A stretch of 64,000 nucleotides of DNA from IMG/VR virus record IMGVR_UViG_3300004481_001615. One strand, given 5' to 3'. The notes under the pieces were generated by a model. The model made no database searches. It had not been told where the DNA came from and worked only from the letters and a program-made list of their open reading frames with translations. A program made the translations under genes and the position numbers. Each line of letters starts with the position of its first letter. Within the stretch, counting starts at the first letter, position 1. Below are positions 669 through 63,794 of this stretch, piece by piece. The DNA comes from a virus (lineage: Duplodnaviria; Heunggongvirae; Uroviricota; Caudoviricetes).

Positions 669-690
669 ATAAAATAATGGTCAATAAGTA

Positions 691-707
691 TTTAAATGTT
701 ATGAGAA
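691..707 (-). promoter_or_regulatory. conserved BRE/TATA-type promoter motif copy (TTTAAATGTTATGAGAA)
   Basis: Member of the roughly 25-copy motif family. The TATA element is 23 nt from the start of ORF 405..668. Confidence 0.6.
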
Positions 708-2215: not shown

Positions 2216-2230
2216 TTTATAAATGTTATT
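2216..2230 (-). promoter_or_regulatory. promoter motif variant (TTTATAAATGTTATT)
   Basis: Motif family member. 40 nt upstream of the start of ORF 713..2176. Confidence 0.5.
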
Positions 2231-3231: not shown

Positions 3232-3257
3232 GATAAAAATTATATCATCAATATATA

Positions 3258-3274
3258 TTTAAATGTTATGAGAA
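3258..3274 (-). promoter_or_regulatory. promoter motif copy (TTTAAATGTTATGAGAA)
   Basis: Motif family member. 27 nt upstream of the ATG at 3231. Confidence 0.6.
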
Positions 3275-3658
3275 AATCTTCTTCTTATCGATTAACATCC
3301 AAGCAAGAACGTTGGTCACACACACCTCTTGGATTCTGATAATAGCCCACCCAGCAAGTCTAAGACGGTTATCTTTTTGCTCGTCCCTACTTTGCTGTTC
3401 AGGTGAGTCATGGTATCCTCCATCAATCTCAACTGCTATCCTGTCGTTGGGAAAGCAAAAGTCTAACTCAAATGCTTTACTACCACCAACATTCCAGAGA
3501 CAGTTCGAATAGAAGTCACCGGAACCGAGAACAGGGCGAGAAAGGATTTGATTGTACTGCTTAGCGACCCGATAAGACTTACCTTTTTTCAGTTTCAGGA
3601 CTTTGGTAAGGATTTGAGAAAAAATACGTTCTCCCTGAGATTGACGACGACCAACCAT
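3266..3658 (-). CDS. DUF559/Vsr-like (PD-(D/E)xK) endonuclease domain protein
   Basis: AVEIDGGYHDS...RDEQKDNRLRLAGWAIIRI matches the DUF559 endonuclease signature. Confidence 0.5.
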   Translation of the reverse strand: MVGRRQSQGERIFSQILTKVLKLKKGKSYRVAKQYNQILSRPVLGSGDFYSNCLWNVGGSKAFELDFCFPNDRIAVEIDGGYHDSPEQQSRDEQKDNRLRLAGWAIIRIQEVCVTNVLAWMLIDKKKIFS

Positions 3659-3682
3659 TTATGATAAAAAGAGAAGTAGTAT

Positions 3683-3697
3683 TTATAAATGTTATTT
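3683..3697 (-). promoter_or_regulatory. promoter motif variant (TTTATAAATGTTATT)
   Basis: 25 nt upstream of the ATG at 3658. Confidence 0.5.
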
Positions 3698-3707
3698 CTT
3701 TCGGTTT

Positions 3708-3926
3708 TTATCTTACCACATACCCGCCCTTTTTGTTGACATAAACATCAACCTTACCACGCTTAAGAACACCAGAATAAAGCCCCATATAGCCCTTACT
3801 TCCGGGTATTCTTCCTTTATTATCTTTTTGGAGTTTTTTAGCGTCTTCATATATTTGATTATGAATTCTGGCACGTTCTTCGCACCACTTTTTATCTTTT
3901 GATACACATAGTGCTTTTTTGGGCAT
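3708..3926 (-). CDS. hypothetical Lys-rich protein; possible fragment of a disrupted endonuclease-like gene
   Basis: Track ORF. One of three contiguous ORFs in different frames between 3708 and 4299. Confidence 0.3.
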   Translation of the reverse strand: MPKKALCVSKDKKWCEERARIHNQIYEDAKKLQKDNKGRIPGSKGYMGLYSGVLKRGKVDVYVNKKGGYVVR

Positions 3927-3931
3927 TATTT

Positions 3932-4165
3932 TTACTCCTTCAACACCTTCTTTGCCCGTTTTTCTGCTTTATCTAGTTCAGCTTGAGTAAAAAGATATTT
4001 ATCTCCCAGTCCGTCTTTGATTCCATAATACCTTCTTTTACCTTTCCATGCATAAATTCCATGACCTGCACCATCAAATGTTGTGAGTTTTTTCTTTTTT
4101 GTCACTTCTATCACCGGTTCCATCCTGACATATCTAACTCCCAACGGAATGAATGAGAGCCACAT
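3932..4165 (-). CDS. hypothetical protein with a GIY...YYG (GIY-YIG-like) motif
   Basis: HGIYAWKGKRRYYGIKDG. Overlaps 4111..4299 by 55 nt in another frame. Confidence 0.3.
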   Translation of the reverse strand: MWLSFIPLGVRYVRMEPVIEVTKKKKLTTFDGAGHGIYAWKGKRRYYGIKDGLGDKYLFTQAELDKAEKRAKKVLKE

Positions 4166-4299
4166 TTACTGCACTTATATTTGTCTTTAAATTTTTCAAA
4201 TTTTTTAGCAATATCGTGGCTATCTTTTCCTTTTATCGTTTTCTTGCTTTTTTTACCACATATGTAGCATGTAAGTTTTAGCTTCGAAGTATCTGTCAT
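4111..4299 (-). CDS. zinc-ribbon protein (CxxC...CxxC)
   Basis: CYICGKK...CSKCGSH. Confidence 0.35.
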   Translation of the reverse strand: MTDTSKLKLTCYICGKKSKKTIKGKDSHDIAKKFEKFKDKYKCSKCGSHSFRWELDMSGWNR

Positions 4300-4460
4300 T
4301 TCTTATTCCTTCTCCTTGGTCTATCTGGGACTACTTGAGTATGAAGAGCAAAAATTGTTTGAAGTTTCTCCTCTTCGCGTTTTAATTGCGCTCTTGCTTT
4401 TATTACATGGTTATTTTGTTTTTCCCTACGTTTTTCCCAAATGCTATATGAGATTTTCAT
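4296..4460 (-). CDS. small ORF (54 aa) below the track cutoff
   Basis: Hand translation MKISYSIWEKRREKQ.... ATG lies about 33 nt downstream of the TATA motif. Its stop overlaps the ATG of 4111..4299 as ATGA. Confidence 0.25.
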   Translation of the reverse strand: MKISYSIWEKRREKQNNHVIKARAQLKREEEKLQTIFALHTQVVPDRPRRRNKK

Positions 4461-4492
4461 ACTTATCTAAAAATAATATATGCTGATAAGTA

Positions 4493-4509
4493 TTTAAATG
4501 TTATGAGAA
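4493..4509 (-). promoter_or_regulatory. promoter motif copy (TTTAAATGTTATGAGAA)
   Basis: Motif family member that drives the 4460 ORF. Confidence 0.55.
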
Positions 4510-5169
4510 TAGCCTGTGGTACCGGTCATACAAACCAACATACTTAAAGAAGTAGTAGGCACAGGGTGCTCCCAGTACACATGCTCCAACCTCTGAGACA
4601 ACGGCCATCCAGTAAATAGATAACTCTAACATTCCTGCACTATCTGAGATAAACACATGGTTTGGGAGCACAAAAAAGAAGATTATAATGAACATAGGAG
4701 TAACCATTATTAGTAGAGGATAGCCAAGAACGATTAGTAGAGCTTTTTTGTATTTCAGTATTATCTTCCTATGCTTGTAGATGTAAATAAAGGGGAGAGA
4801 CAGTATCAAATACCCACCAATTGTCTGTATAAGACCAATAATGGGATTACCACCCGATACTGCTCCGTCTCCACCAACAACAACAGGAGGAGGAATGAGT
4901 TGGGGAACATTTAATAATGCTGGAACAACTGCCCTAAAGAAAGTCATCATAACCTCGATATTGATAAAAGCCTCAAAGAGAGAAAATATTAATGTCACGA
5001 TGTAGAGATAAATATTGTAAGGTCGAGGCAGGAGACCCATAAACAGACCGGCAACCATCAGTGTTCCGGGGACACCAAAAAAATTAGTACCACTGACCAT
5101 CCATGATACAACGAAATAGAAACCCAGACCCATACCAATTAATGTCCATGCACGGGTTGATATTGTCAC
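4501..5169 (-). CDS. multi-pass integral membrane protein
   Basis: Several hydrophobic helices, e.g. AWTLIGMGLGFYFVVSWMV and FMGLLPRPYNIYLYIVTLIFSLF. Confidence 0.45.
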   Translation of the reverse strand: MTISTRAWTLIGMGLGFYFVVSWMVSGTNFFGVPGTLMVAGLFMGLLPRPYNIYLYIVTLIFSLFEAFINIEVMMTFFRAVVPALLNVPQLIPPPVVVGGDGAVSGGNPIIGLIQTIGGYLILSLPFIYIYKHRKIILKYKKALLIVLGYPLLIMVTPMFIIIFFFVLPNHVFISDSAGMLELSIYWMAVVSEVGACVLGAPCAYYFFKYVGLYDRYHRLFS

Positions 5170-6875
5170 CTTCGTATTGCCTCTTTAAACCACTTTGGGA
5201 TTATCTGCCAATTCTTATATATGATATCATTAAATTTGCCGTCAAGTATAAAGGTATTGCCCCAGTCCGAGTCAGAACGACAGACTCTGCCGTATGTTTG
5301 GATGAGACTCATAAGAGTCTGCCATTCGTACCACCCACCATCAATCTCAGACCGCTTTTTTATCTGTGGGTCGCCCAAATAAGGATAGGGGACTTTGCAT
5401 AGAACCTGCCACCGTGCGAGGTCGTCGTGGAGGTCCACACCCAACCTCATAGAGGGAGTCACCATAATCATCGGTGGTGATGATTCAAAGAACGATTGGA
5501 AAACATCTTCACGGTTCTGGTCGAGGTTAGACATCATGACTCGTCTGTGGATAGAGTTAGTTAAAATGAACTGGGCGATAGCATTTGTGTGTGTGTGTAT
5601 TACCCCTTTATGAGAGATATTTTGTGGGATGATTGTGTGGTCTAGGTACTGTAACATATCTGAGAGATACTTGTTTAGTGTCGCCTGTGTCGCCTTCCCT
5701 ACAGGTCGAACGAAGAGTGGACGATTAGCTGGTGGAAAATTTGATGAACCCACCCGAAGGAACTTGACATCCTCTTTTATTCCCAGATATGATTTTAATC
5801 TCTCTGAGTCCAGTATTGTAGCTGAGACGAGGAGGTGCTTGTTTGTGTGCTCAAAGAGAGCAGAGTGAGCGAACGGTGCAACCGTTACTGGTCTAAAAAC
5901 TACTCCCTCATCAGTGTTGTTCCAAACCCAGTTATCGGGATTTGTGGAAATATTTGAGATTAGGAGACTTACTTTTTCAATGAGACCCATAACAAGTAAG
6001 CGGTTCCGTATCTCCGCTGGGCTCACCCCTTGTGATGAGACCTGTCGAGCTGTTCCAAACTTATTGAGGATTGCCTGCATTGTCTGTCTCAGTTCGCCCA
6101 GCCAGAGTCTCCACGACATTATATCGTTGTGGTAGGGAATGTTTATCGGTGTATGCTCAAACGTGTCCGTTATCCTTTTGAGTGTGCGTCGGGTTACTGC
6201 CATTTCAATAAAAGACATTAACATTGACTCGATTGTATGTGCCTCATCTAGTATAGAAAGTTCTCTATGAGCAAAGGAGTGAGAGAACATCATTTCATTT
6301 AGGAAGTAGTGGTAGTTGTGGATTGTCAAAGGAGAATGAATTGCAATATCTTTTTGTTTCCAGTATGAACAGTGAGGGTCTTCTATATCTGCCCAGTTGA
6401 ACTTTACGCCAAACTCATCAAATGGAGATTCGGCCTCATCTTCATCAACATCCTCGAGTGGCGAGTTCTTACCCACTCTTTTGGGCTTGTAAGCACATGG
6501 GTACTCTGTATCTAGTATGCAGGGAGCATCGGCACAGTCCGGGTACTCCGGGTACTCTGAGTCATAGAGATGCGTAACGTTCCTTTTGGCAACTGAACAT
6601 ATGAAGTTACTCCTACCTTTGATTAGGGCGATGTCATTAAAGTCTCTGAGATACTGGTTTTGTAAGTAGATATCAGATACAAGGAAGTGTGTGTAAGAGT
6701 TATTTTCTTTAAATAACCACTTTGCTATAGCGTATGCAACTGGTGATTTCCCAAATCCCGTGGGAGCCTCTAAGAAGATGTAGTTGTAGGAGTCCCACCA
6801 ACTTTCAATTGAGTCCATTACATCTTTTTGATATGGTCTCATTGACTGGAAGGGGAAATGGGAAATTATCGTCAT
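5166..6875 (-). CDS. XPD/Rad3-like superfamily-2 helicase with a putative Fe-S cluster
   Basis: Walker A EAPTGFGKSP and a DEAH box (SILDEAH). A cluster of four Cys (FICS, CADAPC, PCAYK, HCSYW) lies between them, as in XPD. Confidence 0.6.
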   Translation of the reverse strand: MTIISHFPFQSMRPYQKDVMDSIESWWDSYNYIFLEAPTGFGKSPVAYAIAKWLFKENNSYTHFLVSDIYLQNQYLRDFNDIALIKGRSNFICSVAKRNVTHLYDSEYPEYPDCADAPCILDTEYPCAYKPKRVGKNSPLEDVDEDEAESPFDEFGVKFNWADIEDPHCSYWKQKDIAIHSPLTIHNYHYFLNEMMFSHSFAHRELSILDEAHTIESMLMSFIEMAVTRRTLKRITDTFEHTPINIPYHNDIMSWRLWLGELRQTMQAILNKFGTARQVSSQGVSPAEIRNRLLVMGLIEKVSLLISNISTNPDNWVWNNTDEGVVFRPVTVAPFAHSALFEHTNKHLLVSATILDSERLKSYLGIKEDVKFLRVGSSNFPPANRPLFVRPVGKATQATLNKYLSDMLQYLDHTIIPQNISHKGVIHTHTNAIAQFILTNSIHRRVMMSNLDQNREDVFQSFFESSPPMIMVTPSMRLGVDLHDDLARWQVLCKVPYPYLGDPQIKKRSEIDGGWYEWQTLMSLIQTYGRVCRSDSDWGNTFILDGKFNDIIYKNWQIIPKWFKEAIRR

Positions 6876-6898: not shown

Positions 6899-6914
6899 TT
6901 TATAAATGTTATGA
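6899..6914 (-). promoter_or_regulatory. promoter motif copy (TTTATAAATGTTATGA)
   Basis: 24 nt upstream of the helicase ATG at 6875. Confidence 0.6.
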
Positions 6915-7169
6915 TTAAATAACTTTCTTGAGCTTTTTTATTTTTTCTCTCTCGTAATCGCCAATATAAACCTCTCTACCATTATCAAGTGTTATACAAA
7001 TTTCCTTCCCGACACCAACTGGTCCACCCCGAGAAGTATTCACATAATCAACCTTACCTAACTCTCCACCATATAAAACACGACTTCCCTTTCTTACATT
7101 TGACCTTTTATCGAGGTCAAGAACTACTTGCACTGTTTTTGTCTGGGTTCTGTTTTCCTTTCTTACCAT
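6915..7169 (-). CDS. hypothetical protein (84 aa)
   Basis: Track ORF with its own promoter motif 25 nt upstream. Confidence 0.4.
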   Translation of the reverse strand: MVRKENRTQTKTVQVVLDLDKRSNVRKGSRVLYGGELGKVDYVNTSRGGPVGVGKEICITLDNGREVYIGDYEREKIKKLKKVI

Positions 7170-7193
7170 AATAAATAATTATTGATATAAGTA

Positions 7194-7210
7194 TTTAAAT
7201 GTTATGAGAA
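7194..7210 (-). promoter_or_regulatory. promoter motif copy (TTTAAATGTTATGAGAA)
   Basis: 25 nt upstream of the ATG at 7169. Confidence 0.6.
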
Positions 7211-7219
7211 GGATTTTAC

Positions 7220-8095
7220 CTATATCTCAACGATAATATCTACTCTTTTCATGATTTCTCTTGTGTTATTACGTAGAGAGACTTCTGTCACATCACAACA
7301 TACCGCGAGGTCTTTTTGTGTAAGTTCTGTACCTAAGAGTTTACATGATATATATAGGATAGCTCCCGCAAGTGTCAATGGAGACCTACCTGAACTAGTA
7401 TGATTACTACAAAGTGCTGTATATATCTGTCTGCTGATTAATTCTATATCACCAGACATATTAAACTTCATTACTGCCTTTGATATGAGTAATAAAACAC
7501 GGTTATCTTCTGTTTTAGGTATGATACCAGCATTTCTAAGAGCAAAGTAACAGCTACCGATAATTGTGTGTTGTATCCTCACTTTTTCACAAAAGCCTTT
7601 TAGACTGATGGGTTGGTCATGTATCCTATATGAAGCATAGATTGTTGTGCACAGTGTCGTATAGATTGACCTTCCCCTGACATACCCAGATGAAACAACT
7701 TTACGGTATAGAGAGATTGCCGTCTGACATACAACAGTCGGAATGTTTAAAGAGTCTTTGAGGACGGCAAGAGAACTCAATGCAACACTCATATTGTGAT
7801 TAAGGGAGTTTTGCGCCACTGCCCTATCATTGACCTTCCTCAATCTACCCCACATTATTGCTGTTTCACCCACATCCTTCTTATTGTAACCAATTAGAAC
7901 TTGTGGACGGGGAATTTTTGAGATTGGAGCACCACGATTTTTTGTGTCGTCAGTAACATCCCAGCGTTCAGTTAATGTTGGGAATCTACAAAGAACAAAC
8001 CCACATTTAGTGCACACACACTCTCCTGAACTATCAACCGTAAGCTCTGCCCCGCAGAGTTCACATATGAGATTATCTAAAGAGGTCGTCGACAT
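7220..8095 (-). CDS. tfb: transcription factor B (TFIIB-like)
   Basis: N-terminal Zn ribbon CELCGAELTVDSSGECVCTKCGF followed by a roughly 250-aa helical core. Size is typical of archaeal TFB. The likely true start is the internal M (MSTTSLD) at 8095; the track ORF extends into polB. Confidence 0.65.
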   Translation of the reverse strand: MSTTSLDNLICELCGAELTVDSSGECVCTKCGFVLCRFPTLTERWDVTDDTKNRGAPISKIPRPQVLIGYNKKDVGETAIMWGRLRKVNDRAVAQNSLNHNMSVALSSLAVLKDSLNIPTVVCQTAISLYRKVVSSGYVRGRSIYTTLCTTIYASYRIHDQPISLKGFCEKVRIQHTIIGSCYFALRNAGIIPKTEDNRVLLLISKAVMKFNMSGDIELISRQIYTALCSNHTSSGRSPLTLAGAILYISCKLLGTELTQKDLAVCCDVTEVSLRNNTREIMKRVDIIVEI

Positions 8096-10397
8096 CCTTG
8101 TATCCCTCCACATGGTCCCATGATATACCAACAGAAGCGAGTATGCGCTCGAGTGGTGACCTGAGTGTTCGATTGATAATCCAGTCATAATCTGGAACAA
8201 CCCCACGGGACGTTACTGCACTTTGCTCAAGATAAGACACCCACTCATTATGAGGTAATGAACCTGTGGATTTTGCTTTGAAATACCGGACTAAATCTCC
8301 TGGGATTATTGATTCCCCAATATACATGTTGTTCCATATTGCACCATTGTAATATTCACCAGAGACTTTCTTCTCGGTAAATGGTTGAGAAAGGTTTATA
8401 GGTATTGTAATGTCATCTAATGAATATTTGTTACTTTTTATAGAATCCATTATAGTCTTGATTTTTGTTGTCAACTCTGTGATGTTATCCATCAATATAT
8501 CATCAATCACTTCCTTTTGTAACTTACGGGTAACCTCAGATGTATTACCCCTCACATACTCGAACCCCTTAACTAGGATGTAATCACAGGGTTCTCCTCC
8601 CTCCCTGACAATCCTCTGACCGTAACGCTTTTTAGCTCCCACACCTGTCCCCTTCTTTTCGATAAAGAGTGTTGTCTTTGCGAACCGGTCCTCTTTGATA
8701 TGGAAGCGAGAATCTACTATACCCTTCTCTCCTGCCCAGATAGATAACTCATCATTGACTTCGTCAACAAGATTATCAACCTCATCTGGCTTGCTGTGTA
8801 TTAAGATTGAATCTGTATCACCATAGATTGTCTTGTGTCCTATCTTGAGTGCACGACTCCTTACTCGGTCTAATCCCTCCGCACCCGTTCTCAGAACAAA
8901 ATCTCCTCTCTCTTTGCTGTAGATTCGTGAACCCGAGTAAGCAAAGTATCCCCACGCACCTGAGAGGAAGTGCTTGACAACGGTCTGGGTGAGCTTGACT
9001 GTATTGTACTCTTGCGTACCGGGAGTATGCTTTTTCAGTTCTGCATCCCACTTATCACGTTCCGCTGATAGGTATGAGATTACTGCCGGTGCTAGTTTTC
9101 CCCAGATGTCGGGTGATGTCTCTTTCGGGAATGACAAGAGGATTGATGGGTAGTAACGTGACATGTCTAGTACGGTGATATCTCGATAAATCCCAGCATC
9201 AGGAGTGAAGACAACAGCACCCTCGTCCAGACCACTATCATCCTCAGCAGTTCCACTCATTGGGAGTGTGAACCCGAGTTGATGTGCCATACGCAACCAG
9301 AGCGGGTCATGACGTTTGACATGAGATGTTGTATAGTTGATTGTATGCAGACCAACAAAATTACGCTGAGCCCAGAAGTTACTGATTAAGTCGTATTGTA
9401 TCCATTTACCATCTGTCACTCGTTTAAAACCAGTATCAAGTTTTACACAATACTCAACATCCTTTTTATTGTAGAGGATAAAGTCATCCCGAGTATTCCG
9501 ATTATTATACATTTCTACTTTAAAGAACTCTGATACCATATCCTCTGAATGGAGTATCCCTTCACGAACAACAACCTCTTTAAGCCTGTTGCCCAGTGAG
9601 CCTCTGATTTTTCTATACGCCTCGAGGAGGTCAAAGACCTCACCCGACTCCCCAACGGGGATGTGCTTGTGGAAATTCGAGTTTGCCCACGCCTCTAGGT
9701 AGTTAATATCAAACTCAATATTCCAACCAGTGACAATATCTGGGTTCATATAATTGAGATACTCAATCACCTTACCCAGAAGATGTGTAGGTGTAGGAAC
9801 ATGCATAATAATCCAGTCTGGTAGTGGGTTCATTACAACCTCTTTTATGACTCTATCATCCGCACATATTGTCAAATACCTTTTATGGAAGGAATCAAAG
9901 AACGAAACAGATACAACGGGTGCTGTTGGGTTACGTGCGTTAGGGAATCTACCCTGCGTTTTAACCTCGATATCCATGTAGATGACATGGGGCAGTATTA
10001 CCTTGTTAACGGGTTCAAGTAGATTATAAGGAATAATCCTCGATTGAGAATCGGTCTTAAAGCACGAGAGGATTCCTGTGTCAATTAGGAACCGTTGGAT
10101 GAAATTGATATCCGCCTCATGTGCTGATGTGAACCTACCACGATTATCACGGACTTTTAGTGGGTCAGTTACAACTATTTTCTGGTCGAAGGAACCATCC
10201 ATAAATTTGTACCTATCTGAAATAACCGGTACAACCCATGGTTCTGCTGGTACTGTATCTGACTCGGGAACATACATATAGGGTTCGAAACCCGTGATGT
10301 ATAGGAGTTGTTTTTTGTACTCTTCATCACGTACCCACATATCGATATTCTGGGACGTACCATTGTAGTTTGCTGTGATATATTGGTATGTGGGCAT
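8073..10397 (-). CDS. polB: family B DNA polymerase
   Basis: Exo I YMDIEV, Exo II YNKKDVEY, Pol A DMSRYYPSI and Pol C YGDTDS. 774 aa. Confidence 0.9.
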   Translation of the reverse strand: MPTYQYITANYNGTSQNIDMWVRDEEYKKQLLYITGFEPYMYVPESDTVPAEPWVVPVISDRYKFMDGSFDQKIVVTDPLKVRDNRGRFTSAHEADINFIQRFLIDTGILSCFKTDSQSRIIPYNLLEPVNKVILPHVIYMDIEVKTQGRFPNARNPTAPVVSVSFFDSFHKRYLTICADDRVIKEVVMNPLPDWIIMHVPTPTHLLGKVIEYLNYMNPDIVTGWNIEFDINYLEAWANSNFHKHIPVGESGEVFDLLEAYRKIRGSLGNRLKEVVVREGILHSEDMVSEFFKVEMYNNRNTRDDFILYNKKDVEYCVKLDTGFKRVTDGKWIQYDLISNFWAQRNFVGLHTINYTTSHVKRHDPLWLRMAHQLGFTLPMSGTAEDDSGLDEGAVVFTPDAGIYRDITVLDMSRYYPSILLSFPKETSPDIWGKLAPAVISYLSAERDKWDAELKKHTPGTQEYNTVKLTQTVVKHFLSGAWGYFAYSGSRIYSKERGDFVLRTGAEGLDRVRSRALKIGHKTIYGDTDSILIHSKPDEVDNLVDEVNDELSIWAGEKGIVDSRFHIKEDRFAKTTLFIEKKGTGVGAKKRYGQRIVREGGEPCDYILVKGFEYVRGNTSEVTRKLQKEVIDDILMDNITELTTKIKTIMDSIKSNKYSLDDITIPINLSQPFTEKKVSGEYYNGAIWNNMYIGESIIPGDLVRYFKAKSTGSLPHNEWVSYLEQSAVTSRGVVPDYDWIINRTLRSPLERILASVGISWDHVEGYKDVDDLFR

Positions 10398-10667
10398 TTA
10401 CTGTGCCCTCTCAGTGTCCCAGACATACCGCTCGACAGAGTAGGTATTGATGTTAGCAGACTTTAGATAGTTTATTACTACTCCTTCGTGGTCGTAGATG
10501 AGTTCTATGTACGCTGTCTTTAGGTTCTTTGTGCTTTTTGTTGGTGTTACAACTAACATCTCTATCGGTGCTCTGACTAGATAAGCCTCGTAATTTGCTG
10601 GTTTGCAATTAGCTTTTATCCATTTTGTGAACATTTCTGTGTCAACAAATTCTATTCTTGCCATCAT
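10398..10667 (-). CDS. hypothetical protein (89 aa)
   Basis: Strong AGGGAGGTGAT Shine-Dalgarno upstream. ATG overlaps the preceding stop as ATGA. Confidence 0.45.
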   Translation of the reverse strand: MMARIEFVDTEMFTKWIKANCKPANYEAYLVRAPIEMLVVTPTKSTKNLKTAYIELIYDHEGVVINYLKSANINTYSVERYVWDTERAQ

Positions 10668-10810
10668 ATCACCTCCCTATAGTGTGCTGTCACTAAACAG
10701 AAAATCCCACCTATAAGGAGGGCAGACCCTAGACCACCAACAATCAAGATTGATATCGTGATTGCTCCACCACCAGCATACCACAATGTTCTTTTTGTGA
10801 TTTTTACCAT
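10664..10810 (-). CDS. small TM micro-protein (48 aa)
   Basis: Hand-verified codon by codon: MVKITKRTLWYAGGGAITISILIVGGLGSALLIGGIFCLVTAHYREVI. Start overlaps the TPM stop (ATGGTAA) and stop overlaps the next start (ATGA). Confidence 0.35.
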   Translation of the reverse strand: MVKITKRTLWYAGGGAITISILIVGGLGSALLIGGIFCLVTAHYREVI

Positions 10811-11856
10811 TTACCAACGGCACCTCCACCGCCCGACGCTCCACCACCAAAACTCCCGCCACTCGAGTGACCACCACCCGAGTAATCAGAAGAACTCCTA
10901 CTTCTCTCTCGTCGTCTACGTACCTCTTGTTCCCTCTGTCTCTGTCTCTGCCTCTCTTCTTCCTCTTCCCTTTTCTTTCGTAATATCCTATCTTGGACTG
11001 TCTCTATGAGTCTTCGACCGCTAATCGTTTCCATAGTATTCCCACATTTTAGGCATCGCCAATATGATAAGAATAGGAGAGTATACATTGTGCCTATAAG
11101 AACCTCTTTTGTCTTATCTTGGAGAACCTCACCCATCTGTACCTCCCCGCAGTGCTCACAGGACTGCTGACGTCTAGGATTGATGGGAACATCATACTCC
11201 TTTCTACTACTAATGAGTTCGTAGCTATTTTCTATTCTCATATTACCATTATGAATCAATACCAATACGACCGGAGAAGTTATAACAGCAAATCCCAATA
11301 GGTAGGTAAGGGGTTGTACCATCCAACCAAAATCTAAGACTGGCAATACTGGATTGGGATTTGTCTGAGATGGAAAACCAATTTCCTTTGCGAGAGCGAC
11401 TACTGAATTATAGATGCCCTCACCTACCTTACCATCTTTGAGTTTTGGTGTGAGAATATCTCTACCAATCCTACCACACTCTGCGTCAGTGAGCTGACCT
11501 TCTAGACCGTAACCAACCTCAATACCCCACTCTCTTTCTGTCATTGCAATTAAGAGTAAAATACCATTATCTTTATCCGCTTTACCTATACCTGCGACAC
11601 CATCAAGTGGTACATCATTGAAGTATGATAGTTTTGTTTCTTCCATTGTCCTATTACCCATGTTCGTGAGAGTTATACAGACAATCTCCGCTGTTGTATT
11701 TGAATCTACCACAAAAGAGAAATCATCAATCGCCATTTCCCATTCAGAGTCAATGACATCTGCGTTGTCGTAGACATAATGAGGCCTGGTTGAGTTAGTT
11801 ATGGGTAAAGATAGAAGAAATAATATGGTAAGCAATAACCATTTTGATATCTTCAT
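10804..11856 (-). CDS. TPM-domain (TLP18.3/DUF477) protein with a Zn ribbon and a Gly/Arg-rich tail
   Basis: Signal peptide, then GILLLIAMTEREWGIEVGYGLEGQLTD (TPM signature), a CEHCGEV...CLKCGN ribbon and a GGGASGGGG tail. Confidence 0.6.
   Translation of the reverse strand: MKISKWLLLTILFLLSLPITNSTRPHYVYDNADVIDSEWEMAIDDFSFVVDSNTTAEIVCITLTNMGNRTMEETKLSYFNDVPLDGVAGIGKADKDNGILLLIAMTEREWGIEVGYGLEGQLTDAECGRIGRDILTPKLKDGKVGEGIYNSVVALAKEIGFPSQTNPNPVLPVLDFGWMVQPLTYLLGFAVITSPVVLVLIHNGNMRIENSYELISSRKEYDVPINPRRQQSCEHCGEVQMGEVLQDKTKEVLIGTMYTLLFLSYWRCLKCGNTMETISGRRLIETVQDRILRKKREEEEERQRQRQREQEVRRRRERSRSSSDYSGGGHSSGGSFGGGASGGGGAVGKW
10933..10957. repeat. (CTCTGT)n microsatellite encoding the RQRQRQ tract of the TPM protein
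   Basis: Direct hexamer repeats visible in the sequence. Confidence 0.6.
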
Positions 11857-12468
11857 CTAACCTACCACCACGGGTGGGTTTGTCTGAGACTCGTTATTTG
11901 CTTGATAGTTGGGTTTTTGAGACATTCCATTCATACCAGCCACAATACTAGCTGGGAACATCTGGATAGCAGTGTTGTATGATTGAACTGACTCGATGTA
12001 TCGCATACGTGCTACGGCAACACGATTATTCGTTCCTGCTAGTTCATCCATCAATCCAAGTACAATTGTGTCACCATTGAGTTCTGGGTAGTTTTCTGTT
12101 GTGACAATTACGAGGAGACGACCCACAATATTGTCAAGTGCTCCCTGAGCTTCCATCTGTTCTGTCACTGGTTGAGAGAGAGACTTACCCCACTGTGAAC
12201 GTGCCTCTGCTATTGAGGTGAGGAGATTTGTTTCATAGTTGATATAGATTTTTGTGGCATTGACCAGACTTGGAATCAGGTCATATCGACGCTGGTACTG
12301 ATTCTGAACCTCAGACCACTTGGCCTCAACATCCACTTTCTTGGTTATGAGACCATTATAAGTCCCAAAATACCAACCAGCACCAATACCTGCTGTGATT
12401 ATTATACCTACCATGAAACCAATTAGGATTATTTTACCATCCATTTTAGATGCCCTTCTTATTACCAT
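11857..12468 (-). CDS. lemA: LemA family protein
   Basis: N-terminal TM helix and WSEVQNQYQRRYDLIPSLV, which resembles the LemA signature. Paired with a TPM gene, as is typical. Confidence 0.6.
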   Translation of the reverse strand: MVIRRASKMDGKIILIGFMVGIIITAGIGAGWYFGTYNGLITKKVDVEAKWSEVQNQYQRRYDLIPSLVNATKIYINYETNLLTSIAEARSQWGKSLSQPVTEQMEAQGALDNIVGRLLVIVTTENYPELNGDTIVLGLMDELAGTNNRVAVARMRYIESVQSYNTAIQMFPASIVAGMNGMSQKPNYQANNESQTNPPVVVG

Positions 12469-13159
12469 GAGCTATGACTTGCAAACGTGCCGAGAGATTG
12501 AAACCATACTTGACACAATCTTTCCATATTGATGGTAGGAGAGTTATACATCTTTCTGATGTTGTGCATTCTGGCATAAGCCAAACACGGTCTGGTCGTA
12601 TGCCATTGTTTTGGCAGAACACGATAACCTCTTTTGTGTCCTCATCAGTAGCGACAACAAACTTCCAATTAATGTTATACCTGTAATTGTAGTTGTTTAT
12701 CATCATATTGGAATAAAGGAACCAATCTGGGTGAACAGTAGTATCACGAACGACGACATCTTCTTTAGATTGAGAGTTTGAGAGTTTTGGCGAAATGTTG
12801 ATTTCCCAGTGCTTCAATATATCGGGCACCCATTTAAGACCCAATAATGAAATTGTACCGTTTGTTTCCATGGCATACCTAGTTCCACTTGCAGAACCCA
12901 GCATAAAATCCCAGATTTCGCCCTTTTGTAGTAGTGGTTCTCCACCCGTGAAGACAATCATATCACCTGTCTTAAATCCGAGCGAAGAAAGTTTATCTTT
13001 TAGTTCCTGCATGGTATAGTCCGTTCCACCTGACCAGCTGTACTTTGTATCACACCACTTACAAGCTAGGTTACAACCAGCTAATCGAACAAAATAGGCG
13101 ACACGGCCCGTCGATGGACCCTCACCTTGGATTGATTTAAAAACCTCAACTACTTTCAT
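12446..13159 (-). CDS. queE: 7-carboxy-7-deazaguanine synthase (radical SAM)
   Basis: FVRLAGCNLACKWCDTKYSW matches the QueE CxxxCxxCD cluster-binding motif. Confidence 0.7.
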   Translation of the reverse strand: MKVVEVFKSIQGEGPSTGRVAYFVRLAGCNLACKWCDTKYSWSGGTDYTMQELKDKLSSLGFKTGDMIVFTGGEPLLQKGEIWDFMLGSASGTRYAMETNGTISLLGLKWVPDILKHWEINISPKLSNSQSKEDVVVRDTTVHPDWFLYSNMMINNYNYRYNINWKFVVATDEDTKEVIVFCQNNGIRPDRVWLMPECTTSERCITLLPSIWKDCVKYGFNLSARLQVIAHGNKKGI

Positions 13160-13572
13160 ATACTCACTCCCTGATTGTCTCCCTCATAGATTGTAAAGTG
13201 AACACATTCTTCATCTAAATCAAATTTTGTCGCTAGCTCTCTTTTTATGGTCATAGCAATCTCTTCCACACTTGTGTTTTCTATAGATTTGATATCAAGT
13301 ACACATTCATTAGCGACTAAAATTTTGGCCTTTTGCCAGATATGTTCGTGCCTAGTTGGCACTAGAAGTATGTGGTCCCAATTCTCTTTGAAATAGGCTT
13401 TTATCTCGCCTAGGTCGATACAATAACCTGTCTCTTTATCCATAGTCTCATTTGTTATGTCTATTTTTAGTTTTTTAATGAAATATGTATGCCCATGAAG
13501 TCTCCCACACTTGGGATGGCTGGGGATGTAATGAGACAGGTCAATTGTTATTTTATTAAGCTTGAGGAGCAT
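13156..13572 (-). CDS. queD: 6-carboxy-5,6,7,8-tetrahydropterin synthase
   Basis: 138 aa with CGRLHGHTY, the QueD/PTPS CxxxHGH motif. Overlaps queE by 4 nt. Confidence 0.65.
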   Translation of the reverse strand: MLLKLNKITIDLSHYIPSHPKCGRLHGHTYFIKKLKIDITNETMDKETGYCIDLGEIKAYFKENWDHILLVPTRHEHIWQKAKILVANECVLDIKSIENTSVEEIAMTIKRELATKFDLDEECVHFTIYEGDNQGVSI

Positions 13573-13870
13573 TTACAACCAACTCTCCATCTACTAACCG
13601 ATTATATGAGTCTGAGATTGAATCGGACAGACCCACATGGAAATCTTTGGCCGAGAACCCACACTTGGAACATTTGAATGAGTAGAAGTTCTGTTTTGAC
13701 TGTTCCTTACCCTGACCAATGAGCCTAAATCGTTTTTGACCATGAAGGGTAGGATAATGACATGTCGGGCAGAGAAACGGTCCCTTTGTCATGTCTTTGA
13801 TTTGTTTCCGCTTATTGCGGGTTATCGAATCTCGAACGAGGTCGAGAGAAGTCTTATTACGTTTCACCAT
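13556..13870 (-). CDS. zinc-ribbon protein (104 aa)
   Basis: CPTCHYP...CSKCGF. First gene downstream of the promoter at 13893. Confidence 0.4.
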   Translation of the reverse strand: MVKRNKTSLDLVRDSITRNKRKQIKDMTKGPFLCPTCHYPTLHGQKRFRLIGQGKEQSKQNFYSFKCSKCGFSAKDFHVGLSDSISDSYNRLVDGELVVNAPQA

Positions 13871-13892: not shown

Positions 13893-13908
13893 TTTATAAA
13901 TGTTATGA
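13893..13908 (-). promoter_or_regulatory. promoter motif copy (TTTATAAATGTTATGA)
   Basis: 23 nt upstream of the ATG at 13870. No further motif copy until 7210, which implies a roughly 6.6-kb operon. Confidence 0.6.
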
Positions 13909-14337: not shown

Positions 14338-14361
14338 GATAGAATAATATGTCTTTAAATA

Positions 14362-14378
14362 TTTAAATGTTATGAGAA
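14362..14378 (-). promoter_or_regulatory. promoter motif copy (TTTAAATGTTATGAGAA)
   Basis: Motif family member. Confidence 0.6.
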
Positions 14379-16218: not shown

Positions 16219-16247
16219 TCTACCTGATAGTATAATGGTCAATGACA

Positions 16248-16263
16248 TTTATAAATGTTATGG
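16248..16263 (-). promoter_or_regulatory. promoter motif variant (TTTATAAATGTTATGG) with downstream ACCTGATA element
   Basis: The TATA is 19 bp from the conserved tacctgata element at 16221-16229. Confidence 0.55.
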
Positions 16264-16421: not shown

Positions 16422-16437
16422 TATATAAATGTTATGG
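16422..16437 (-). promoter_or_regulatory. promoter motif variant (TATATAAATGTTATGG) facing an ORF-free 160-bp region
   Basis: Motif family member with no ORF of 60 aa or more downstream before the next motif. Confidence 0.45.
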
Positions 16438-16716: not shown

Positions 16717-17069
16717 GGTCTTTCACCCAACTTTTCTTTGATGAGTGTTTTTATATCTTCTAGCAACTGGTCCCTATCACCGGAGAACCTGAGTCTGTTC
16801 TCATCGGGGATGTGAGCAAACTCTGATTCTTTTTTGATTATCATATCTTCGATGTCGTTTATTATCTTCCAGAGTTTTTCGGAAACGTTCGGGTAGAACG
16901 TAGAGTAGAACCTTCTCCACTCCTCATCGGTGTGGTGCGTATTGAACCAGTGCCACATCTCTTTGTCGGAAATGAAGTTATAATGACTCCACTTCGCATA
17001 TCCTCGCATAGCCTCTGTCTCGGCACGGTCTGCTCTGATTCTTTTATCTGAGATAATTACTTCACTCAT
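16713..17069 (-). CDS. hypothetical protein (118 aa)
   Basis: Track ORF with a 4-nt overlap to folE. Confidence 0.4.
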   Translation of the reverse strand: MSEVIISDKRIRADRAETEAMRGYAKWSHYNFISDKEMWHWFNTHHTDEEWRRFYSTFYPNVSEKLWKIINDIEDMIIKKESEFAHIPDENRLRFSGDRDQLLEDIKTLIKEKLGERP

Positions 17070-17695
17070 TTACTATCCGCCACCTTATAGAACTCATCAC
17101 GGAGAGCTGAGTCTGTTCGGAAGGCTCCGAGGAGTGCTGTGTTTGTTGCACCCTCACCATTCTTCACTCCTCTCATACGCATGCACATATGGAGACCCCT
17201 CACTTTGACAGCCACGTGGTCTGTGCATAGAGTCTTTGATAGAAGCTCGGCGAGTTGTGGTGTAAACTCTTCTTGGACGATTGGTTGACGAGCAAATATG
17301 TCGGTAATCCTTATTAACTTTGAGAGACCAACTATCTTACCTTGTGGGATGTACCCAAGTGAGACCCTGTACTCCACTGGAAGGAAGTGATGTGGGCAGA
17401 TTGAAAAGACTGTAAATGGTTCGAGTGCAAGTAAGGCGTCTCTGTTGTGAGGGAAGATAGCTTGTGCATGTTCCTCACATATTTCTATAATTTCGGGTTG
17501 TGGCACAGTGAATCCTAACAACCACTCTGCCATCCGTTTAGGGGTTTCTTTAAAGTTTGGGTCTTTTAAATCAATTCCCAACTCTATAAGGAGACTTGTG
17601 ACATGTTTAGTCACAAGAGAAGAACTTCTATTTGATTTGAATTCCTTTTTTGAACTCATACCATCACCTAACATAAACTTTTCAAGGTTATCCAA
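17066..17695 (-). CDS. folE: GTP cyclohydrolase I
   Basis: SICPHHFLPVEYRVSLGYIPQGKIVGLSKLIRI closely matches the FolE active-site block CEHHLVPF...GYIP...GLSKL. Confidence 0.7.
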   Translation of the reverse strand: MDNLEKFMLGDGMSSKKEFKSNRSSSLVTKHVTSLLIELGIDLKDPNFKETPKRMAEWLLGFTVPQPEIIEICEEHAQAIFPHNRDALLALEPFTVFSICPHHFLPVEYRVSLGYIPQGKIVGLSKLIRITDIFARQPIVQEEFTPQLAELLSKTLCTDHVAVKVRGLHMCMRMRGVKNGEGATNTALLGAFRTDSALRDEFYKVADSK

Positions 17696-19855: not shown

Positions 19856-19892
19856 TTCAATATATCTCCTAATTAAAGATTAGATGATTACA

Positions 19893-19908
19893 TTTATAAA
19901 TGTTATTA
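19893..19908 (-). promoter_or_regulatory. promoter motif variant (TTTATAAATGTTATTA)
   Basis: Motif family member. Confidence 0.5.
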
Positions 19909-21292: not shown

Positions 21293-21308
21293 TTTATAAA
21301 TGTTATTA
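21293..21308 (-). promoter_or_regulatory. promoter motif variant (TTTATAAATGTTATTA)
   Basis: 24 nt upstream of the ATG at 21269. Confidence 0.55.
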
Positions 21309-22013: not shown

Positions 22014-22029
22014 TTTATAAATGTTATGA
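22014..22029 (-). promoter_or_regulatory. promoter motif copy (TTTATAAATGTTATGA)
   Basis: Motif family member. Confidence 0.6.
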
Positions 22030-22921: not shown

Positions 22922-22946
22922 TATAAAATCTATTCTCTCATTGATA

Positions 22947-22963
22947 TTTAAATGTTATGAGAA
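22947..22963 (-). promoter_or_regulatory. promoter motif copy (TTTAAATGTTATGAGAA)
   Basis: Motif family member. Confidence 0.6.
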
Positions 22964-23017: not shown

Positions 23018-23278
23018 TTACACCTTCTTTCCAGAGTAGTGGAACGCTGATACCCACATTGCTAGTGGTGGTAGGTTTGCTATTGCACTTATAGGGTCGT
23101 TTATCATGAAAAAACCGTAGGTGAATAGTGTGCAAGCTATGATGTATGCTAGGCACGTTGTTTTGCTGAAGCTCGTTGTCTGCGTTTTTAGAATGGTAAT
23201 GGCTTGTGGGATACAAAGCAGAGCAATGAGCCATGTGCCTATATTGAAGCTGAGATTGATTAAATCCAGAGTAGTCAC
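23018..23278 (-). CDS. small membrane protein (86 aa)
   Basis: Two or three hydrophobic helices. Start overlaps the stop of 23275..24549 as ATGA. Preferred over the overlapping 22992..23336 frame. Confidence 0.4.
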   Translation of the reverse strand: MTTLDLINLSFNIGTWLIALLCIPQAITILKTQTTSFSKTTCLAYIIACTLFTYGFFMINDPISAIANLPPLAMWVSAFHYSGKKV

Positions 23279-24549: not shown

Positions 24550-24582
24550 GTTGATTGTCAAAAAATAATGGGTAGATATCAT

Positions 24583-24598
24583 TTATAAATGTTATGAT
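24583..24598 (-). promoter_or_regulatory. promoter motif copy (TTTATAAATGTTATGA)
   Basis: Motif family member driving the DpdA-like gene. Confidence 0.6.
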
Positions 24599-24601
24599 TG
24601 T

Positions 24602-25590
24602 TTAGGCTTTTTCGAGAATTTTCGGTACAGTTGTGTCGTACATCTTGCCGTTCTTATGTGGGCAGTCATTGATGTCTTCAAAGAGACATAGTCCTCGTAG
24701 TCTCAGGTAACCACAAGAATAGGTTTTGTATTTTGAGAGTGTTCTTATTTGATAAAGAGTCGTGGGTTTAGACCAATCCAACCACTGCAACTGTTCATAG
24801 AAACCAGCTATCTGTTCTGGAGAGAAGAATTGGAGAAGGTCGACAGTTGATGCGACACGTGATATGTGGAGTGGGTTGGGAATGTTAACTGCCCTGTAGA
24901 GACAGGGTCGTAAGATGTTCGAGAGGAACTCACTACCAACTGATGAACTAAGAGAAGGGAGTGCAAGTGCAGGTGTATAGTTACGTATCTCAGATAAAGT
25001 TGCTCTGGGAAGGTCGTTTATTGTATGTTTTGGTGATGGAATAGCTGAGTATTCGTGGGGCATCTTAGACCATTGAACAATATCCATCCATTTATAGTTG
25101 ATGAATTCTGGTGGTAGATGTGTGCACCATGTCTTATTAGCAGGAGGTCGACGGGTATTAGGAACACGACTGATTCGACGGACATCCCCAATACAGTGAG
25201 GGTCCGCTGTTGTTTTGAGATAATCTTTACCAAAAACGGCTTTGAGGATACCCCACGTGGCTTCGGATAATCTCTCTTTAGTTGTCGGGACTGGTTTTAG
25301 TAAGATGTAGATATGTATCCCTTTTTTACCTGATACAATAGGAATAACTGCGTGATTCCTTTCTTCCAGCCATGTATAGACCCTTTTAGCATCTTCGAGT
25401 CCACGTGCGTGCCCATCAAAGTCGAAGTAGATTTTATCAATAATGCCAGAAAGGGGATAGATTGAGGTGTAACAGTCGGTGACACCATCATTTTGTATTA
25501 GGTAGTTCTGGAAACCCTCGATTGAGTTTGCTACAGAACGGATACCTACCTCACGTGGGAATTGACCAAAAAGTTGGAGAGTTAGAGTGT
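24602..25590 (-). pseudogene. frameshift-disrupted gene (at least 4 ORF fragments in 3 frames)
   Basis: Pieces at 24602..25087, 25018..25233, 25297..25491 and 25445..25590 are adjacent or overlapping in different frames. Hand translation shows an open frame at 25590 that terminates at a TGA TAA where the next fragment is already open in a shifted frame. Confidence 0.35.
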
Positions 25591-25599
25591 CGAGAATTA

Positions 25600-27944: not shown

Positions 27945-27947
27945 AGA

Positions 27948-28913: not shown

Positions 28914-28942
28914 TCTAAGTCAGAGGATAGATATAATGATAA

Positions 28943-28958
28943 CATATATAAATGTTTG
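28943..28958. promoter_or_regulatory. bidirectional promoter at the strand-switch point (CATATATAAATGTTTG)
   Basis: Nearly symmetric aacat-ATATAAA-atgtt. About 26-32 nt from both the minus-strand ATG at 28913 and the plus-strand ATG at 28978. Confidence 0.5.
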
Positions 28959-28977
28959 TCCAATATCTAACATCAAT

Positions 28978-35060: not shown

Positions 35061-35091
35061 TACATACCTGATAATAAAATGGTATATAACA

Positions 35092-35107
35092 TTTATAAAT
35101 GTATTGG
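35092..35107 (-). promoter_or_regulatory. promoter motif variant (TTTATAAATGTATTGG) with downstream ACCTGATA element
   Basis: The TATA is 19 bp from tacctgata at 35065-35073. Confidence 0.5.
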
Positions 35108-36354: not shown

Positions 36355-36370
36355 TATATAAATGTTTATA
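36355..36370 (-). promoter_or_regulatory. promoter motif variant (TATATAAATGTTTATA)
   Basis: 24 nt upstream of the MAT ATG. Confidence 0.5.
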
Positions 36371-37032: not shown

Positions 37033-37066
37033 ACCATTCTACCTGATATAGTATATATCAGAGACA

Positions 37067-37082
37067 TTTATAAATGTTATGA
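37067..37082 (-). promoter_or_regulatory. promoter motif copy (TTTATAAATGTTATGA) with downstream ACCTGATA element
   Basis: The TATA is 19 bp from tacctgata at 37040-37048. Confidence 0.6.
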
Positions 37083-38917: not shown

Positions 38918-38946
38918 ATCAATAAAGATTTATCCTCTCGTGGATA

Positions 38947-38963
38947 TTTAAATGTTATGAGAA
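38947..38963 (-). promoter_or_regulatory. promoter motif copy (TTTAAATGTTATGAGAA)
   Basis: Motif family member. Confidence 0.6.
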
Positions 38964-40831: not shown

Positions 40832-40865
40832 ACCATTATACCTGATATTAGATATATTCTTTACA

Positions 40866-40881
40866 TTTATAAATGTTATGA
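40866..40881 (-). promoter_or_regulatory. promoter motif copy (TTTATAAATGTTATGA) with downstream ACCTGATA element
   Basis: The TATA is 19 bp from tacctgata at 40839-40847. Confidence 0.6.
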
Positions 40882-41955: not shown

Positions 41956-41988
41956 AGTTTATACCCATACTATAAAATCATAATGACA

Positions 41989-42004
41989 TTTATAAATGTT
42001 ATGT
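41989..42004 (-). promoter_or_regulatory. promoter motif variant (TTTATAAATGTTATGT)
   Basis: 34 nt upstream of the ATG at 41955. It is the last motif copy before a 16-kb motif-free stretch. Confidence 0.55.
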
Positions 42005-49078: not shown

Positions 49079-49081
49079 ATT

Positions 49082-49324: not shown

Positions 49325-49325
49325 G

Positions 49326-57940: not shown

Positions 57941-57956
57941 TTTATAAATGTTATCT
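57941..57956 (-). promoter_or_regulatory. promoter motif variant (TTTATAAATGTTATCT), the only candidate promoter for the glycan island
   Basis: Motif family member and first copy upstream of the motif-free 42.0-57.9 kb block. Confidence 0.5.
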
Positions 57957-63712: not shown

Positions 63713-63777
63713 GGTTTTCTACTCCATAATACCACGGCCGTGGCTATGGGGCTAGAGATTTATAGACATGATAAATA

Positions 63778-63794
63778 TTTAAATGTTATGAGAA
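63778..63794 (-). promoter_or_regulatory. promoter motif copy (TTTAAATGTTATGAGAA)
   Basis: Motif family member. Confidence 0.6.

Follow-up and report, generated by a model that had tools for sequence, protein, structure and literature searches.

Here, we analyze a transcription initiation factor gene at 7220..8095 on the minus strand of a 64,000-nt stretch of DNA (hereafter, the window) from IMG/VR record IMGVR_UViG_3300004481_001615, a record assigned to the Caudoviricetes whose source contig is 94.7 kb long. The gene is translated without interruption into 291 aa and encodes a full-length homologue of archaeal transcription factor B (TFB) and of TFIIB, here denoted vTFB. It is the final cistron of a 6.7-kb transcription unit that runs from 13870 to 7220 (minus strand) and includes a family B DNA polymerase (PolB), in an element where nearly every intergenic gap having promoter-like sequence carries one motif composed of a BRE (the element that TFB recognizes) and a TATA box. 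The longest form of the vTFB reading frame runs up to GTG 8206, and ATG 8095 is the best start: a Shine-Dalgarno (SD)-like hexamer, GGAGGG (8109-8104, minus strand), lies within the PolB 3' end, 8 nt 5' of this ATG, and homologues start 2-10 residues ahead of the first cysteine, which together make ATG 8095 a credible start.

The original prediction, made from the sequence alone, took this open reading frame (ORF) for a TFB-like factor, and both profile searches and structure modeling agree. The TFIIB profile PF00382 matched vTFB with E 2.2e-19 and 69.7 bits (cut-off 23.6) in two repeat matches; the zinc ribbon family PF08271 (Zn_Ribbon_TF), which had been proposed for the same check, gave no Pfam match in the window protein. 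In phmmer searches of the PDB, residues 97-289 matched the Pyrococcus woesei TFB core (1d3u_B/1ais_B; 1d3u_B 5-198) with E 1e-21, and residues 22-285 matched human TFIIB with E 1e-10. The NCBIfam profile NF001658 covers vTFB over its full length (E 1.9e-39; profile positions 13-311 of 312 aligned with residues 8-290), at 135.6 bits, below its curated cut-off of 384 bits. Judged by these comparisons, vTFB is homologous to, yet far from, canonical cellular TFBs. An AlphaFold2 (AF2) model, as the prediction had suggested building, was obtained with a 70-sequence alignment and had a predicted local distance difference test (pLDDT) score of 88.4, and its best Foldseek matches in the PDB were all TFIIB/TFB chains with probability 1.00; a single-sequence AF2 model (pLDDT 40) was discarded in favor of the alignment-based one. 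Thus, vTFB is a genuine, full-length, very divergent archaeal transcription initiation factor B.

Like cellular TFB (P. woesei, 1D3U/1AIS), vTFB comprises a zinc ribbon, a reader/linker region, two cyclin-like repeats and a C-terminal helix-turn-helix (HTH), and adopts the same fold in the model. The N-terminal zinc ribbon occupies residues 11-32 (8000..8065, minus strand), as placed by the alignment and the model; its four cysteines (C11, C14, C28 and C31) and G32 are invariant across the 70-sequence alignment, and residues 11-30 form three short beta-strands at pLDDT 90-94, in line with the TFB-type ribbon originally read from the cysteine pattern. In relatives of the element (contigs denoted by L and protein matches by P, described below), PF08271 matches reach 48-52 bits (L012/L014) and 24-27 bits (P0002/L015). 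The B-reader/B-linker region, delimited by alignment, follows at residues 36-95 (7811..7990, minus strand; pLDDT 59-70) and keeps the B-reader-like ERW and RGAP. The first cyclin-like repeat spans residues ~97-190 (7526..7807, minus strand) and the second residues ~199-284 (7244..7501, minus strand), the latter containing the HTH recognition helix VTEVSLRNNTREI at residues 269-281 (7253..7291, minus strand). A truncated paralogue of the Sulfolobus TFB3 type was ruled out, given that vTFB has both cyclin repeats and the HTH. In the recognition helix, N277/T278 stand in place of the cellular R/Y, with V272/R275 kept. Among the closest 68 database TFBs, the helix reads EVT[IV]RNRYKE, with R at the position of residue 277 in 60 of 68 and Y at that of residue 278 in 37 of 68, and a helix of the form E[VI]SLR[NS]N[TI] is common to vTFB and the four TFBs of its relatives.

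The transcription unit that ends with vTFB encodes, in order and all on the minus strand, a 104-aa Zn-ribbon protein (13556..13870), a QueD/PTPS-like enzyme (13156..13572), a QueE-like radical S-adenosylmethionine (SAM) enzyme (12446..13159), a LemA-family protein (11857..12468), a TPM-domain protein (10804..11856), an 89-aa protein (10398..10667) with the SD sequence GGAGGTGA in front and a stop codon abutting the PolB ATG, PolB (8073..10397) and, directly 3' of it, vTFB. The vTFB start and the PolB 3' end (stop at 8073) overlap by 23 nt. In the promoter of the unit, CATAACA-TTTATAAA (13893..13907, minus strand), the first T of the TATA box precedes the first ATG by 30 nt. Within 14000-7000, the minus strand has TATA-like octamers only at 13900 and 7199, both of them motif copies, and a single T5 run. 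Because there is no internal TATA box and the genes inside the unit overlap, abut the preceding stop or have an SD sequence, a single transcription unit is well supported by the sequence, and so is the predicted co-transcription of vTFB with PolB in a 13.9-to-7.2 kb operon. As the last cistron of a replication/DNA-modification operon (QueD, QueE, PolB), vTFB would be made together with the replication proteins. Immediately downstream, a class A promoter (see below), TTCTCATAACA-TTTAAATA (7192..7211, minus strand), lies directly 3' of the vTFB stop and drives an 84-aa basic ORF (MVRKENR..., 6915..7169, minus strand), followed by a gene for an XPD/Rad3-like helicase (5166..6875, minus strand) that has its own promoter (6899..6913) and that, in L012 and L014, directly follows TFB.

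The motif itself, ATAACATTTAWA, occurs in 23 exact copies and in 28 copies with at most one mismatch, against 1.9 expected, and none of 100 shuffles reached the count; the over-representation is 12-15-fold, on strands matched to the genes, which supports the conserved BRE/TATA promoter motif of the original prediction. The aligned copies show C-A-T-A-A-C-A immediately 5' of TTTA[T/A]A[A/T]A, and at motif positions -7 to -4, which were left free in the search, C, A, T and A were found in 16, 20, 19 and 20 of 21 copies, respectively. Archaeal promoters have a TATA box centered near -26. Here, 25 motif copies are on the gene strand, and in 18 of the 25 an ATG follows the first T of the TATA box at a distance of 30-43 nt, a spacing that fits leaderless or short-leader archaeal mRNAs. 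Since the distance from motif to start codon is fixed at 30-43 nt, a repressor operator was rejected as the main explanation of the motif, and the palindromic copies could additionally bind a dimeric regulator. An exception to the rule, with a conventional purine-rich BRE (GAGAAG-TTTATAAA), is found upstream of 2591-2824. A scan for bacterial sigma-70 promoters and terminators, irrelevant to an archaeal element, showed no meaningful enrichment, and the 17-nt promoter motif searched across IMG/VR gave a single match per contig among the 80 matches listed of 120, consistent with chance.

Two promoter classes that share the same BRE can be distinguished. Class A, TTCTCATAACATTTAAATA, is represented by 8 minus-strand copies, each before a small ORF of 54-124 aa, at 696 (689..703), 3263 (3256..3270), 4498 (4491..4505), 7199 (the copy 3' of vTFB), 14367 (14360..14374), 22952 (22945..22959), 38952 (38945..38959) and 63783 (63776..63790); five of the eight ORFs start with MV(K/R)K, most are lysine/arginine-rich, and these promoters may form a distinct expression class. 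Class B, (A/C)ATAACATTTATAAAT, is often a perfect palindrome, ACATTTATAAATGT, and includes the promoter of the vTFB operon as well as that of the helicase gene; further copies, all on the minus strand, are at 2216..2230, 3682..3696, 21293..21307, 22014..22028 and 24582..24596, the last one belonging to a TGT/DpdA-like gene, and palindromic copies are at 16248..16262, 19893..19907, 37067..37081, 40866..40880 and 41989..42003. The perfect palindromes, CATAACATTTATAAATGTTATG-like, span 16245-16261, 19887-19906, 35086-35102, 37064-37080, 40863-40879 and 41986-42002, and the one at 35086..35106 matches the motif on both strands. No ORF is present on the opposite strand at the palindromic class B promoters, which could be bidirectional with antisense transcripts or could serve as sites for a dimeric regulator. 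A variant palindromic motif (28939..28959) lies between the divergent minus- and plus-strand gene blocks; other minus-strand variants are a TTTATATA promoter at 16422..16436 and AAACA-TTTATATA at 36355..36369, upstream of a SAM synthetase gene. The motif promoter at 57941..57955 (minus strand) heads a ~16-kb glycosylation/lipid/radical-SAM gene block. This block (42000-57850, minus strand) lies behind a single motif promoter at 57948, with internal gaps at 47468-47720 and 50249-50564 devoid of the motif, and encodes glycosyltransferases, radical-SAM/B12 enzymes, an epimerase, a GHMP kinase and a cytidylyltransferase, along with a CDP-alcohol phosphatidyltransferase (lipid head group), a transaldolase and methyltransferases.

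A HMMER search over 1.84 billion representative proteins yielded one close relative of vTFB, P0002 (37% identity), with the remainder at 25-35% and the nearest cellular-type TFBs at 30-35%; a word-indexed protein search matched vTFB itself only. P0002 is encoded directly 3' of a PolB that is 71% (BLASTP) or 74% (local alignment) identical to the PolB of the window. A metagenome scan with a PolB alignment added further contigs from three related sediment samples, and TFB follows PolB wherever a contig extends as far as the PolB 3' end (L012, L014, L015 and L013, the latter equivalent to L002). The TFBs of the relatives all pass the Pfam TFIIB cut-off, and the PolB-TFB adjacency is found in five lineages, namely, the window, L001/L002/L013, L015, L012 and L014. 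Across this family, identities in the same pairs are 29-38% for TFB, 56-74% for PolB and 51-53% for the helicase (window versus L012: PolB 57%, helicase 53%, TFB 33%; window versus L001: PolB 74%, TFB 38%), so that TFB, with identity far below that of PolB or the helicase, is the fastest-evolving gene of the PolB-TFB(-helicase) module. In a rough neighbor-joining (NJ) tree without support values, the five family TFBs and P0066, which is near-identical to the TFB of L014, formed one long-branched clade, separate from the TFBs that Sulfolobales virus YNP1 and rudivirus ARV3 encode; this tree and the synteny place vTFB in a PolB-linked mobile-element clade and not among cellular TFBs. The PolB of L014 (5334-8648) is extended to 1104 aa by an intein with a LAGLIDADG homing endonuclease.

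Promoters of the form xAAC[A/G]-TTTAWAWA are present in the relatives as well, with at least one xAAC[A/G] BRE in all five lineages. L015 carries TATCATAACA twice, the BREs of L012 and L014 include AATAACA, CGTAACA and AATAACG, and L001 has ACATAACATTTAAATACTTAT 3' of TFB, in the same place as in the window. Contig L018, which encodes the closest SAM synthetase (62% identity), was considered as a control and rejected because it represents a different AT-rich virus with other promoters and no TFB in 21 kb.

The gene content of the window identifies vTFB as element-encoded rather than as a host gene on a chromosomal fragment. No tRNA genes were found in the 64 kb, and none of the Pfam matches across it corresponded to a housekeeping function; a Pfam scan (E<=0.001) of the greedy-map ORFs of at least 45 aa across the window produced no TBP or RNA polymerase (RNAP) subunit, as originally surmised. 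The replication and repair genes encode PolB, the XPD-like helicase, two clamp-loader proteins resembling replication factor C (RFC), an exonuclease and a uracil-DNA glycosylase (UDG), and a DUF3987 protein matches a PHROG DNA primase family. The PolB is nearest to the PolBs of haloarchaeal tailed viruses, at 24% identity. A complete 7-deazaguanine gene set, consisting of QueD/QueE (12446-13572), FolE (17066-17695) and the TGT/DpdA-like protein (23275-24582), suggests that the DNA of the element is modified. No capsid or terminase gene was recognized within the 64-kb window, and for this reason the element is termed virus-like and not a proven virus; integrase or conjugation genes were not seen in the window either.

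The element is probably hosted by Bathyarchaeia, on suggestive evidence from two genes. Among the 120 best matches of its archaeal-type SAM synthetase (35108-36331, minus strand; PF01941, 435 bits), 10 of the 11 with an organism label belong to Candidatus Bathyarchaeota/Bathyarchaeia, with 48-51% identity, and the labeled clusters among the ten nearest non-family TFB matches belong to Bathyarchaeota and a Nitrososphaerota lineage. No related locus was detected when GTDB genomes were scanned with the SAM synthetase or with the PolB alignment, so that neither a provirus nor a host bin was identified, and in IMG/VR, scanned with TFB and PolB singly and with the alignments of PolB and of the family TFBs, nothing was closer than PolBs of 21-24% identity. 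In a published survey of the Bathyarchaeia virome, the terms TFB, TFIIB and PolB are absent, and the sole family B polymerase described there (Kunpengvirus) comes without a TFB. Manipulation of the methyl cycle seems to be a trait of the PolB-TFB family, given that the window encodes a SAM synthetase and L001 instead encodes MTHFR, MetE and AdoHcyase. Upstream of the MTHFR gene, two MetE-like genes and the AdoHcy hydrolase gene of L001, the closest relative, long GC-rich non-coding stretches (3250-4370 and 7740-8100) lie behind AAAG/AAAC-TTTATATA promoters; these stretches may be structured RNAs, and no Rfam match was obtained in them, in the other relatives or in the window.

Several other regions of the window and its relatives merit mention. 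A primase-polymerase-like ORF (~24602-25597, minus strand) contains the motifs IYFDFDG and SGKKGIHIYI and matches the Pfam family LigD_Prim-Pol with E 0.001, under the cut-off. Its frame stays open over ~330 codons, the first ATG/GTG/TTG is encountered only at 25087, and the ATG of the L014 homologue aligns with ATA/ATT near 25597; a non-canonical start, an assembly error or a pseudogene could account for this anomaly. Between this ORF and the gene for a 254-aa protein is a 453-nt stretch (25598-26050, minus strand) without a credible ORF, which is the most GC-rich part of the window, has reversed GC skew, folds somewhat better than shuffles (z = -2.67) and has no match to an Rfam family even at E<=1. 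A 98-aa Zn-ribbon protein (40535-40831, minus strand) with a weak PF08271 match (E 4e-4, 20.3 bits, under the cut-off) may be another small RNAP-interacting protein. The ORFs of 790, 960, 487, 254, 372 and 321 aa (58202-63392, 713-2176 and 26065-28913, all on the minus strand) have no Pfam or PHROG match; unannotated ORF trios of 318/368/259 aa in L012 and 318/375/260 aa in L014 resemble, as compared by size only, the 321/372/254 aa of the window, and the large unannotated ORFs are candidate structural proteins.

That vTFB is the reader of the conserved motif and redirects the host RNAP, as the original prediction suggested, is plausible and undecided. A plausible link is provided by the derived recognition helix in the five TFBs together with the xAAC[A/G] BRE in all five lineages; in addition, two Bathyarchaeia chromosomal regions have heterogeneous, SD-led promoters without CATAACA. 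Taken as a whole, the TFB identity and domain architecture, the operon, the placement of the motif, the PolB-TFB linkage, the fast divergence and the family-specific helix are best explained, with a probability of roughly 0.5, by a TFB of a virus-like element that takes over transcription by positive feedback after a start by the host TFB. From these observations, we infer contacts with TBP and RNAP, a BRE preference and an order of events, as follows. The host TBP, TFB and RNAP would first fire the strong, near-canonical CATAACA-TTTAWAWA promoters, including that of the vTFB operon. Accumulating vTFB would then displace the host TFB from pre-initiation complexes, with its zinc ribbon and B-reader engaging the host RNAP, its cyclin core binding host TBP and DNA, and the altered helix SLRNNT reading the invariant xAACA BRE. 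The outcome would be a positive-feedback bias of the host machinery toward the ~25 promoters of the element.

Several lines of evidence weigh against this scheme. CATAACA fits the Sulfolobus-type BRE, which we take to be RNWAAW, at 5 of 6 positions, and the motif comes close to a canonical BRE in having A at both -3 and -4 and a purine at -6. Inspection of the alignment shows V272 and R275 unchanged in vTFB, the equivalents of V283 and R286, presumably the BRE contacts of human TFIIB. The motif also drives the operon of vTFB itself (13893-13907), so that, unless vTFB is packaged, the host TFB must read the motif first, and, if the host TFB recognizes it, vTFB is not strictly required for its reading. 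Motif and TFB are not strictly coupled in the family, because AGTTCGG-TTTATATA stands in front of the TFB-containing operon in L012/L014 and several promoters of L001 are of the form AAAG-TTTATATA. Where the four relatives and cellular TFBs have (G)LSTEI in the B-linker, vTFB has VLIGYN; having lost STEI and with a zinc ribbon too diverged for Pfam, vTFB could be impaired in DNA opening. Finally, equally rigid BRE/TATA promoters are known in SIRV2 and the fuselloviruses (SSVs) (PMC11065993), neither of which figures among the viruses with a reported TFB, and, according to the same source, which cites Qureshi and Jackson, the motif has the BRE A at -3 but A instead of the preferred G at -6.

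A more ambitious version of the takeover, which we put forward only tentatively, is that PolB-linked vTFBs are specificity factors whose helix co-evolved with the CATAACA-type BRE and which form virus-specific pre-initiation complexes that out-compete host promoters, possibly with the palindromic promoters acting as sites of origin activation. If true, this would be the first archaeal equivalent of the takeover by phage sigma factors.

The alternative that survives best, although we regard it as doubtful, is that vTFB is an unspecialized spare TFB that secures the supply of initiation factor where the host TFB is limiting or shut down, with no promoter preference of its own, the motif being simply a strong consensus. 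The near-canonical BRE, the retention of the BRE-contacting V and R, the need of the TFB operon for host TFB to start and the rigid promoters of viruses not reported to have a TFB all accord with a spare copy. However, purifying selection on the interface with the host machinery should then keep vTFB alike to its cellular counterparts, whereas its identity to every cellular TFB is ~30%, its divergence outpaces that of PolB and of the helicase, and it shares with its family helix substitutions at otherwise highly conserved positions.

We consider it unlikely that vTFB is a decoy or inhibitor that binds the host RNAP/TBP non-productively and shuts off host transcription, or that it acts in trans like TFB3. 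The degenerate B-linker signature and diverged zinc ribbon of the window protein and its score far under the NCBIfam TFB cut-off would be expected of such a protein, and archaeal viruses do target RNAP, as exemplified by ATV RIP, a mimic of the B-linker (PMC9501531). Against this stands the complete architecture, with both cyclin repeats and the DNA-binding HTH, unlike truncations of the TFB3 type; the STEI linker and a canonical zinc ribbon are both present in the relatives, and a global inhibitor would block the element's own transcription because the element encodes no RNAP.

A replication-coupled role, in which vTFB recruits RNAP to a palindromic promoter or origin to open the DNA or to prime PolB, was proposed because TFB comes directly after PolB in five lineages and is followed by the helicase in three, and we deem it improbable. 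The conservation of the PolB-TFB(-helicase) order over five lineages despite strong divergence speaks for this role, as do the palindromes (ACATTTATAAATGT), which would bind TBP and TFB in either orientation; yet the element has primase-like genes of its own (the DUF3987/PHROG DNA primase family protein and the PrimPol-like ORF), and adjacency can reflect shared early timing. The last alternative, an ordinary host tfb gene on a chromosomal fragment, accounts for a domain architecture like that of cellular TFB and is effectively refuted by the lack of tRNAs and of housekeeping Pfam matches across the 64 kb, the dense short ORFs behind ~25 copies of one promoter, the viral-type replication and DNA-modification genes, the merely 30-35% identity to the nearest cellular-type TFBs, the GTDB scans with the PolB alignment and SAM synthetase that found no related locus, and the linkage of the clade to a virus-type PolB in every instance.

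Comparison with known systems sets the takeover reading of vTFB in context. Unlike cellular TFB, vTFB has the helix SLRNNT in place of T[IV]RNRY, has lost the STEI linker, shows ~30% identity and has its gene in a viral replication operon instead of on a chromosome. It resembles the TFBs of the Italian rudiviruses (ARV3 gp32, MRV1 and SSRV1) and of YNP1 in being a TFB of an archaeal virus without its own RNAP, and differs from them in sequence (24-26% identity) and in its placement in a separate clade of the NJ tree, which lacks support values. The rudivirus TFB is among the variable genes typical of genome termini, and the hosts of rudiviruses and YNP1 are hyperthermophilic Sulfolobales, whereas vTFB is a conserved core gene in the PolB-helicase module of a much larger element; from the sequence comparisons, vTFB looks like an independent acquisition. 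The TFBs of WyrdV1 and the Asgard mobile genetic elements (MGEs) 10H_0 and 7H_42 are likewise mobile-element TFBs and were proposed to recruit the host machinery to element genes; they differ in host lineage and element type (a spindle-shaped virus and unclassified MGEs), and the passages on them considered here report neither a PolB linkage nor a uniform promoter. In thaumarchaeal integrative and conjugative elements (ICEs), a TFIIB homologue is also conserved on an archaeal mobile element with Thermoproteota-related hosts, and in all ICEs examined it occurs in linkage with ParB and with genes for type IV secretion (PMC6563490), unlike vTFB, whose linkage on a virus-like element is to PolB and a helicase.

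Phages encode sigma factors such as T4 gp55 and SPO1 gp28. The logic proposed for vTFB is like that of these factors and of haloarchaeal multi-TFB systems, in which the host RNAP is redirected by a specificity subunit that comes from the virus or from a paralogue, so that vTFB would be, by functional analogy, the archaeal counterpart of a phage-encoded sigma factor. Unlike the phage factors, vTFB has no sigma homology, and the motif subclasses A and B share one BRE, with the vTFB operon being class B.

A TFB on an archaeal virus or mobile element is already known from rudiviruses, YNP1, Asgard elements and thaumarchaeal ICEs, and vTFB apparently represents a new, independent lineage of such TFBs, distinguished by its status as a replication-module core gene, its rapid divergence and the near-universal promoter of the element. 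To our knowledge, no archaeal virus encodes an RNAP. According to a 2022 review, viral TFBs lack functional characterization and their preference for viral promoters is not established (PMC9501531). The element described here is an unusually clean test case, with one divergent full-length TFB and one nearly invariant BRE/TATA, and it comes with four natural relatives in which TFB diverged (27-38% identity) while the recognition helix and the AAC[A/G] BRE persist. Rather than a new principle, these TFBs offer a clean experimental handle on the question whether viral TFBs steer host RNAP to viral genes. With them, the range of mobile-element TFBs comes to include a new lineage, apparently that of a large Bathyarchaeia virus, in which TFB belongs to the core of the replication module and is not an accessory at the genome ends.

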